Shown here one piece after another: positions 42,480 to 43,740 of a DNA stretch of 64,000 nucleotides (the stretch's first letter is position 1; the number at the start of each line of letters is the position of its first letter). Position numbers and translations under genes: made by a program. Source of the stretch: Heptranchias perlo (taxonomy: Eukaryota); contig NC_090347.1 in assembly GCF_035084215.1 (NCBI RefSeq), positions 8,742,001-8,806,000 of the forward strand. The letters run 5' to 3'. The notes under the pieces are model-generated. The model had not been told where the DNA came from. It did no database searches and worked only from the letters and a program-made list of their open reading frames with translations.

Positions 42480-43740
42480 ACTGAAATAAACACTAGAAGC
42501 ACCTTAGTTGCCAGCAGTTTAATGGGAATGGGGTCAAGGAAGCCAGGAGGTGGGTCTCAGTCACACAAAGAGGAGGAGATGAGAGAGAAACTAGAGAAAG
42601 ACATGGGTTCAGGGAAGATAAGCCTTGGGAGAGGTCTGGCCTGGGGAGGGGAATGCGGTAGAGGTAGATGAACAGATTTTTTTATTATTTGTTCATGGGA
42701 TGTTGGTGTTGCTGGCAAGGCCAGCATTTATTGCCCATCCCTAATTGCCCTTGAAAAGGTGGCGGATATATTTCCAAACGTAAGGAATCTTACAACACCA
42801 GGTTATAGTCCAACAATTTTATTTTAAAATCACAAGTTTTCGGAGATTATCTCCTTCGTCAGGTGAGTGACGAAGGAGATAATCACCTGACGAAGAAGAT
42901 AATCTCCGAAAGCTTGTGATTTTAAAATAAAATTGTTGGACTATAACCTGGTGTTGTAAGATTCCTTACCTTTGTCCACCCTAGTCCATCACCGGCATCT
43001 CCACATCATGATATATTTCCAAGTCAGGCTGCTGTGTGACTTGGAGGGGAACGTGCAGGTGGTGTTCCCATGCGCCTGCTGCCCTTTATCTTCTAGGTGG
43101 GAGAGGTCGCAGGTTTGGGAGGTGCTGTCAAAGAAGCGAGTTGCTGCAGTGCATCCTGTGGATGGTACACACTACAGCCATGGTGCGCCGGTGGTGAAGG
43201 GAGTGAATGTTTAGGGTGGTGGATGGGGTTAATCTTAGTGGCAAGCAAGTCAGTGAGCAGCTACCATGTGTTGTTGGAGGGAGAACATGGGAATTTCCGT
43301 AATACATAACTTTAGACTGGAGAAAATCATGAAAGCTGTTTTTTAAAAAAAAACTCAGCTATAGGAGGGAAGGTGGGCCGAAGCAGGAGCATAGACAGGC
43401 AATGTTACGGAGGTGGAAGTAGGCAGTCTTTGTGATATAGAGGATTATGGATTTGGCATCTCAGTTCACGGATGTTAAGGTGGCAAACCATTTAGTTCAA
43501 CCTGAGACAGTGGCCAGGGAGGGAGGAAGAATTAGTGATGAGGGTATGGTGTTTGTGATGTGGTAGAAAACAATGGCTTAGGTGTACCCAACGTTTAACT
43601 GGGAATTTATGGCTCATCTAAGATTGCATGTCAGATGAGCAATCTGACAACACAAAGGCAGTGTCAGGGTTGTGAGAGGTGGTGGAGAGATAAAGCTGGG
43701 TATCATCAGTGTAGATAAAGCTTGGAAGTAATGGGTGGAT
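42480..43740 (-). mobile_element. L2 fragments containing a nested LINE 3' end (~42678-43228), which in turn contains the hammerhead mini-element
   Basis: Antisense similarity to 4680-5392 and to the 36077 LINE 3' end. Confidence 0.7.
42778..43009 (+). mobile_element. Second-subfamily fold-back mini-element with hammerhead motifs on both strands
   Basis: Perfect 13-bp TSD gatatatttccaa (42765-42777 and 43010-43022), inverted arms and the same tail. CTGACGA...GAAA cores at ~42882-42920 (+) and ~42829-42867 (-). Confidence 0.82.

Follow-up and report, generated by a model that had tools for sequence, protein, structure and literature searches.

A short inverted insertion of an abundant Penelope-like retrotransposon, carrying likely inactive hammerhead motifs, in CENPX intron 1 of Heptranchias perlo

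Insertions of Penelope-like retrotransposons (PLEs) have been described as a tailed arm joined to an inverted tail-less arm (Craig 2021, PMC8557442), and the PLE tail, the inverted pseudo-LTR (pLTR), the target-site duplication (TSD) and a TATA box plus TCACT initiator were reported by Arkhipova (2013, PMC3846280). As far as the available text of these two papers goes, EN+ PLEs of the Neptune/Nematis type have a single ORF, in which a reverse transcriptase (RT) is followed by a GIY-YIG-type domain, a CX2-5CxxC linker and pLTRs, with an inverted 5'-truncated arm, a tail of 30-40 bp at one end only, a TSD and a TATA box with a TCACT-like initiator. Minimal hammerheads (HHRs) occur in the pLTRs of metazoan PLEs (Cervera 2014, PMC4209133). 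They belong to type I and have a helix I of 4-6 bp, an extra base lying between 9 and 10.1, a G10.1-C11.1 pair and a palindromic 15.2-16.2 in place of a real helix III; many variant families exist per genome and paired motifs lie on opposite strands. No shark example was found in the text of that paper available to us. For Poseidon_Ac of Anolis, it was reported that both strands are nicked and extended, that two RT start sites bound the tail, and that the hammerhead, located near the pLTR-ORF junction, is protein-assisted (Frangieh 2024, PMC11167929). Non-LTR retrozymes (Li et al. 2026, 10.64898/2026.07.22.740005) are non-coding, PLE-derived head-to-tail tandem repeats with a type I hammerhead.

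The locus studied here lies in the window, i.e., the whole 64,000-nucleotide stretch of H. perlo DNA that was analysed (NC_090347.1, positions 8,742,001 to 8,806,000), and its features are as follows:

42229..42261, plus strand: coding part of CENPX exon 1 (MERSERAKFKK), placed by eye
42677..43229, minus strand: older LINE 3' fragment hosting the insertion, from flank-matched copies and an ORF match
42765..42777, plus strand: left TSD, 13 bp, a perfect repeat match with the right TSD
42778..42870, minus strand: PLE pLTR arm, inverted, tail-less
42827..42866, minus strand: minimal type I hammerhead motif, core CTGACGA at 42862-42856
42868..42884, plus strand: templated junction filler or partial core TGACGAAGGAGATAATC, read directly from the sequence
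42883..43009, plus strand: PLE pLTR arm, tailed, 127 bp
42883..42919, plus strand: minimal type I hammerhead motif, stem I TCAC/GTGA, core CTGACGA at 42887-42893, stem II at 42895-42907, AGCT palindrome at 42911-42914
42975..43009, plus strand: PLE tail of about 35-40 nt, on one arm only
43010..43022, plus strand: right TSD, 13 bp

The feature is real, but there is nothing unusual about it: a PLE present in very many copies has left a short insertion here. With a probability of about 0.9, it is a 5'-truncated, inverted PLE insertion, likely produced when the RT of the element primed two times, at nicks staggered on the two strands, with likely inactive hammerhead motifs as passengers. The initial annotation had noticed a perfect 13-bp TSD, hammerhead cores on both strands and a partial extra core between the arms, and all three were found again: the sequence GATATATTTCCAA is a perfect direct repeat at the two TSD positions, and the partial core corresponds to the filler at 42868-42884, which is joined through TGA and TC microhomologies. 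The final three bases of the tail-less arm (TTG) are a microhomology overlapping the TSD, and the tailed arm terminates at the ATG of the PLE ORF. Together the arms form a 92-bp inverted repeat with 97% complementarity. The right arm has two relatives within the window, at 21655 and 56594. The arms of the copy at 56504-56674 are joined through stem I sequences (TCAC/GTGA overlap), and its tailed arm begins at the predicted cut site.

The placement of the insertion in an older LINE 3' end, about 500 bp into intron 1 of CENPX, was also borne out. When 25 other LINE copies matched by their flanks were compared with the LINE sequence on either side of the insertion, identity was about 78-94%, and the reading of the host LINE matches the C-terminus of a LINE ORF at another locus (L067), which is itself recognized as Pfam RVT_1 (E 3e-15). 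About 106 bp of LINE sequence carried by the 25 flank-matched copies is absent just left of the left TSD (42762-42765); the deletion junction occurs once in the whole genome, and simple two-nick priming does not account for a deletion that touches the TSD. As exon 1 of CENPX ends at 42261, the TSD starts 504 bp into intron 1, which runs to 45040. The exon at 47198-47287 matched CENP-X in PDB (E 1.4e-6) and in Pfam (E 2.5e-4, under the curated cut-off), and four further exons were placed by eye. A genome-wide Pfam CENP-X search did not pick up the CENPX locus of the window; its single match was on C6 (G000:C6:2560790-2560903), where the CENP-X-like sequence has an in-frame stop and is possibly a processed pseudogene.

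The initial annotation regarded the insertion as a member of a second subfamily of mini-element. This was not upheld. The insertion is the truncated end (pLTR) of an EN+ PLE and not a separate mini-element family, and the family contains many variants, not two. When the genome was searched with the arm, near-identical copies were recovered, many of them extending upstream into a common 3' region and an ORF. At locus L062 the arm is present at 2249-2375, the ORF starts from an ATG at the end of the arm, the arm recurs at 5281-5407 and an inverted truncated copy lies upstream; L063 has the same build (pLTR-ORF-pLTR plus an inverted truncated arm). The 127-bp arm is thus a pLTR on both sides of a roughly 3-kb element. 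The ORF contains Pfam RVT_1 (E 1e-10), and in its translations the linker PCHGNLCKTC (C-X4-C-X2-C) lies between RT and EN. A Pfam search of the ORF did not detect an endonuclease domain and PDB sequence searches gave nothing significant; an endonuclease-like motif (VVY..WYIGET) was spotted by eye at the C-terminus, and the C-terminal half scored 0.97 against Atlas clusters in which 22-27% of members have GIY-YIG. Judged from the linker, the clade is likely of the Neptune type; the linker fits CX2-5CxxC, a form that fails to separate Neptune from Nematis.

Compared with the systems described above, the H. perlo family has the ORF with an RT on the terminal sequence, the GIY-YIG-like C-terminus, the pLTRs, the inverted 5'-truncated arm and the one-sided tail of EN+ PLEs, as well as the TSD and the TATA box plus TCACT-like initiator of the Neptune/Nematis type. 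However, its TSDs are 12-15 bp instead of the 8-10 bp of rotifer PLEs (PMC3846280), its tail ends at the ATG of the ORF instead of inside the ORF (PMC8557442; PMC3846280), and its copy number is very high. Its hammerheads share the listed properties of metazoan PLE motifs, whereas helix II is 4-5 bp here and 7-8 bp in Schistosoma (PMC4209133). The two RT start sites bounding the tail, the nicking and extension of both strands and the hammerhead near the pLTR-ORF junction in Poseidon_Ac have counterparts in the family, at the level of what its insertions imply. On the other hand, the Poseidon_Ac ORF starts in stem II, whereas in H. perlo some 90 nt separate the predicted cut from the ATG downstream of it, and no start-site difference between strands was reported in vitro (PMC11167929), whereas the pairs here almost always have one of each. 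The copy in the window is non-coding and PLE-derived with a type I hammerhead, as are non-LTR retrozymes (10.64898/2026.07.22.740005); in contrast to their head-to-tail units with a hammerhead in each, it is a single insertion with head-to-head arms inside one TSD.

Exact pattern counts in the genome gave 106,839 arm anchors (reversed control 0) and 82,761 hammerhead cores (reversed control 4), including 5,294 cores of the stem II type of this copy, which is one of roughly 100,000 arms. Neither this PLE family nor short copies arising by run-off at a transcription start site (TSS) were described in the papers found by the literature search; the family may well be catalogued in Repbase/Dfam.

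Compensatory changes in two stems had been taken in the initial annotation as support for a conserved RNA structure. One of them is a true two-sided change: stem II reads GGAGA(taa)TCTCC in this copy and GGAGG(aag/tag)CCTCC in the other two copies of the window, and both variants sit on a near-identical ORF. Among 43 distinct variants, the fifth pair of stem II is A-U in 16, G-C in 15, G-U in 2, C-G in 1 and unpaired in 9, and it is therefore regarded as a loose loop-closing pair reflecting few independent events. The other change, atcac/gtgat in stem I, is a junction artefact. The 'a' of atcac is the end of the filler GGAGATAA (...GATAA/TCAC), ATCAC was found at stem I in only 104 of the 5,294 cores of this variant, and the 34 B-type arms with native upstream sequence carry CTCAC (20), TTCAC (9), TTCAT (4) or GTCAC (1) and never ATCAC. 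As all of these face GTGAT, the pair is broken, not compensated, in 33 of the 34. Nor is the N7 position of the core diagnostic, since cores with GGAGG/CCTCC carry either C or G there.

A conserved hammerhead-type structure in the PLE family is nevertheless supported by the comparison of variants. For this comparison, 92 of 174 cores were kept as having native 5' context, and the alignment consisted of the 40 distinct forms of those 92 plus three rarer forms added by hand (L072, L114 and L145). The core columns were invariant or nearly so. The four inner pairs of stem I were paired in all 43 rows, with C-G changing to U-G or U-A, and the fifth was unpaired in 23; in stem II, GGAG/CUCC changed to GGGG/CCCC. 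Overall, 90.9% of cells were paired; shuffling gave 87.2%, with none of the 500 shuffles reaching the observed value, and sliding the partners gave 24-49%. A two-sided change was present at 5 of 11 pairs. These figures are supportive evidence and not a formal test, because the rows are related rather than independent, some of the changes from C to T are simple transitions and three of the rows had been entered manually. The parts of the minimal PLE hammerhead were all seen, namely the CUGANGA and GAAA-N-N-UH core, the extra base before G10.1-C11.1, the palindromic 15.2-16.2 (absent from the minus-strand motif of this copy), and paired helices I and II with variation that keeps the structure.

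In the copy of the window, each strand has one lesion, as the initial annotation had seen. A G to A change at 42896 disrupts stem II of the plus-strand motif (agaaga), and a G to A change at 42837 breaks the AGCT stem III palindrome of the minus-strand motif (GAAAAC). Both lesions are rare, minority states: agaaga was found in 30 cores genome-wide, compared with the 5,294 cores of this variant (the two search patterns differ slightly), and in both arms at two loci; GAAAAC was found in 0 of 100 among the cores listed. From standard hammerhead numbering, the predicted cleavage site of the plus-strand motif lies between 42915 and 42916. The parent RNA would need a second copy, pairing through the AGCT palindrome, or the element's protein for such a minimal hammerhead to cleave, and in this copy the RNA of the CENPX intron is predicted to lock both cores into one long hairpin. 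The predicted fold of the 258-nt RNA was a single hairpin (-149.1 kcal/mol, z -22), and a single transcript contains only one sense core, within that hairpin. When the cores were folded in isolation, neither hammerhead of this copy was in the minimum-energy structure, while the other two copies of the window formed stems I and II. Both motifs are likely inactive passengers, given the lesion in each core, the missing same-strand partner and the long hairpin. An Rfam gathering scan of the window gave no match.

Downstream of the predicted cut, the sequence at 42916-42984 (GT...AG, 69 nt) has a pyrimidine tract just before the ORF start and is possibly a 5' UTR intron, whose 5' splice site would be the cleavage site itself. 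A search for spliced genomic copies gave two matches, both with the AG kept, and the expected joint was absent among the 15 of 232 joints listed. The intron is thus unsupported, although a missing spliced copy would also be compatible with its presence, since PLEs retain introns.

The inverted pairs of the family indicate how such insertions could have arisen. Two sets of inverted pairs, which overlap and were selected in part for resembling the query, had exactly one tailed arm per pair in 51 of 52 and in 88 of 91 cases; in the unbiased part of the 52-pair set this held for 17 of the 18 pairs. The TSD measured 12-15 bp in 45 of the 52. In 61 of the 91, no more than two differences (0-2) separated the arms of a pair, compared with a median of 7 for random pairs. 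The central junctions, which vary between copies, are mostly few-base overlaps (often 1-9 nt) or short fillers; fillers or partial cores similar to that of the window occur at L037, L045, L049 and L057. That cores lie on both strands, with a partial one besides, is a product of the insertion reaction and not a design. At L164, L177 and L211 the subfamily variant differs between the two arms of a single insertion, which points to two RNA templates or to gene conversion. For the copy of the window, we infer that the endonuclease would nick both strands 13 nt apart; one nick would prime cDNA at the end of the tail and the other at a second start site, which lies some 35-40 nt deeper inside, with either the same RNA or a sibling as template; the two cDNAs would stop just upstream of the hammerhead, likely at the 5' end of the transcript, and repair would join them head to head. 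This model is in agreement with the in vitro results for the Anolis PLE (PMC11167929). Alternatively, a single cDNA could have folded back and copied its own sequence into the inverted arm, without second priming on RNA. Such self-priming has been proposed for PLE palindromes (Arkhipova 2013, PMC3846280), and both the rare variants common to the two arms (L009 and L242) and the frequent junction overlaps of 1-9 nt would fit it. It is nevertheless unlikely. Among the 71 short pairs compared (no more than 420 bp apart and including one tailed arm), the greater 5' reach belonged to the tailed arm in 18 and to the tail-less arm in another 18, with the two similar in 35, and so neither arm is a simple copy of the other and each can hold sequence missing from its partner; at L064 the unequal 5' reach extends over kilobases. 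Moreover, self-priming leaves the fixed end of the tail-less arm unexplained.

A further constraint comes from the 5' ends of the arms. Among 98 arms in genome order (recovered from 100 places listed), 31 begin within -19..0 of stem I compared with 3 in -59..-20. A TATA-like box was recognized by eye in nearly all native upstream sequences; 79 of the 89 arms starting in the 30 nt before the core start at least 28 nt after it, and the 5' ends accumulate about 28-38 nt downstream of it. Run-off at the 5' end of the transcript would be the simplest reading of this pile-up, and the 5' end of the mRNA, primed twice and copied to run-off, may be the source of the short copies. The pile-up could also have been caused by RT stalling at the hammerhead structure, or by repair preferring the stems, a tentative explanation that concerns this step only and that we consider somewhat improbable. 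The many starts at -4 from the core and the junctions that use stem I (L002, L190 and the window copy at 56594) or the AGCT palindrome (L162) are what it would predict. However, the start zone shifts with the TATA-to-core spacing (Mann-Whitney p 0.002, in a mixed sample with uncertain subfamily assignment of short arms). In addition, exact matches within one subfamily decreased over three 6-nt steps upstream from 13,856 to 6,582, 3,380 and 2,642 (48%, 51% and 78% kept), with within-subfamily sequence variation possibly adding to the losses, and the 78% kept at the last step means that the loss eases beyond the predicted start; and at least five pairs, among the 100 matches listed, have both arms starting at the predicted +1. 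A footprint of hammerhead cleavage was not seen as a sharp peak, with 207 arms breaking at the predicted site compared with 161 at the preceding base and 293 at the following one; in sampled loci 22/30, 8/15 and 7/15 of these were true truncations, which corresponds to about 150, 85 and 135. This agrees with the report of uncleaved RNA as template. It is very improbable that the short copies are a non-autonomous element that propagates itself in the manner of a SINE or retrozyme, has subfamilies of its own and uses hammerheads designed to function on both strands. Short copies are indeed very common (the start lies within -19..+10 of stem I in 38 of the 98 unbiased arms) and their stems are conserved, but the central junctions differ from copy to copy, the same variants are present on ORF-bearing copies, the short copies are without the TATA-like box and ORF start, each transcript would have one sense core buried in a hairpin, and the head-to-tail repeat that defines non-LTR retrozymes is not the form of this copy. 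There is about an even chance that the short palindromic copies, of which there are tens of thousands, record the PLE mechanism in vivo as two-start run-off: priming at the pLTR/ORF junction, with one event at each of two start sites, both fixed in position and served by opposite nicks that are separated by 12-13 nt, and run-off about 30 nt after the TATA-like box without hammerhead cleavage.

The individual copy matters little, as it is damaged and predicted to be folded shut. The PLE family, on the other hand, amounts to an extensive natural data set on how Penelope elements integrate. The pairing of a tailed with a tail-less arm, the stagger of 12-13 bp and the accumulation of 5' ends close to the likely transcription start are testable in vivo constraints on a mechanism that until now was studied in vitro and for one element only. 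The family-wide insertion rules are the part worth pursuing; the hammerhead type itself has already been described. Elsewhere in the genome, at G000:C1:4435536-4467211, same-strand cores occur in runs about 3,080 bp apart, which suggests that full-length elements are arranged there in head-to-tail tandem, an arrangement that could give rise to dimeric hammerheads.
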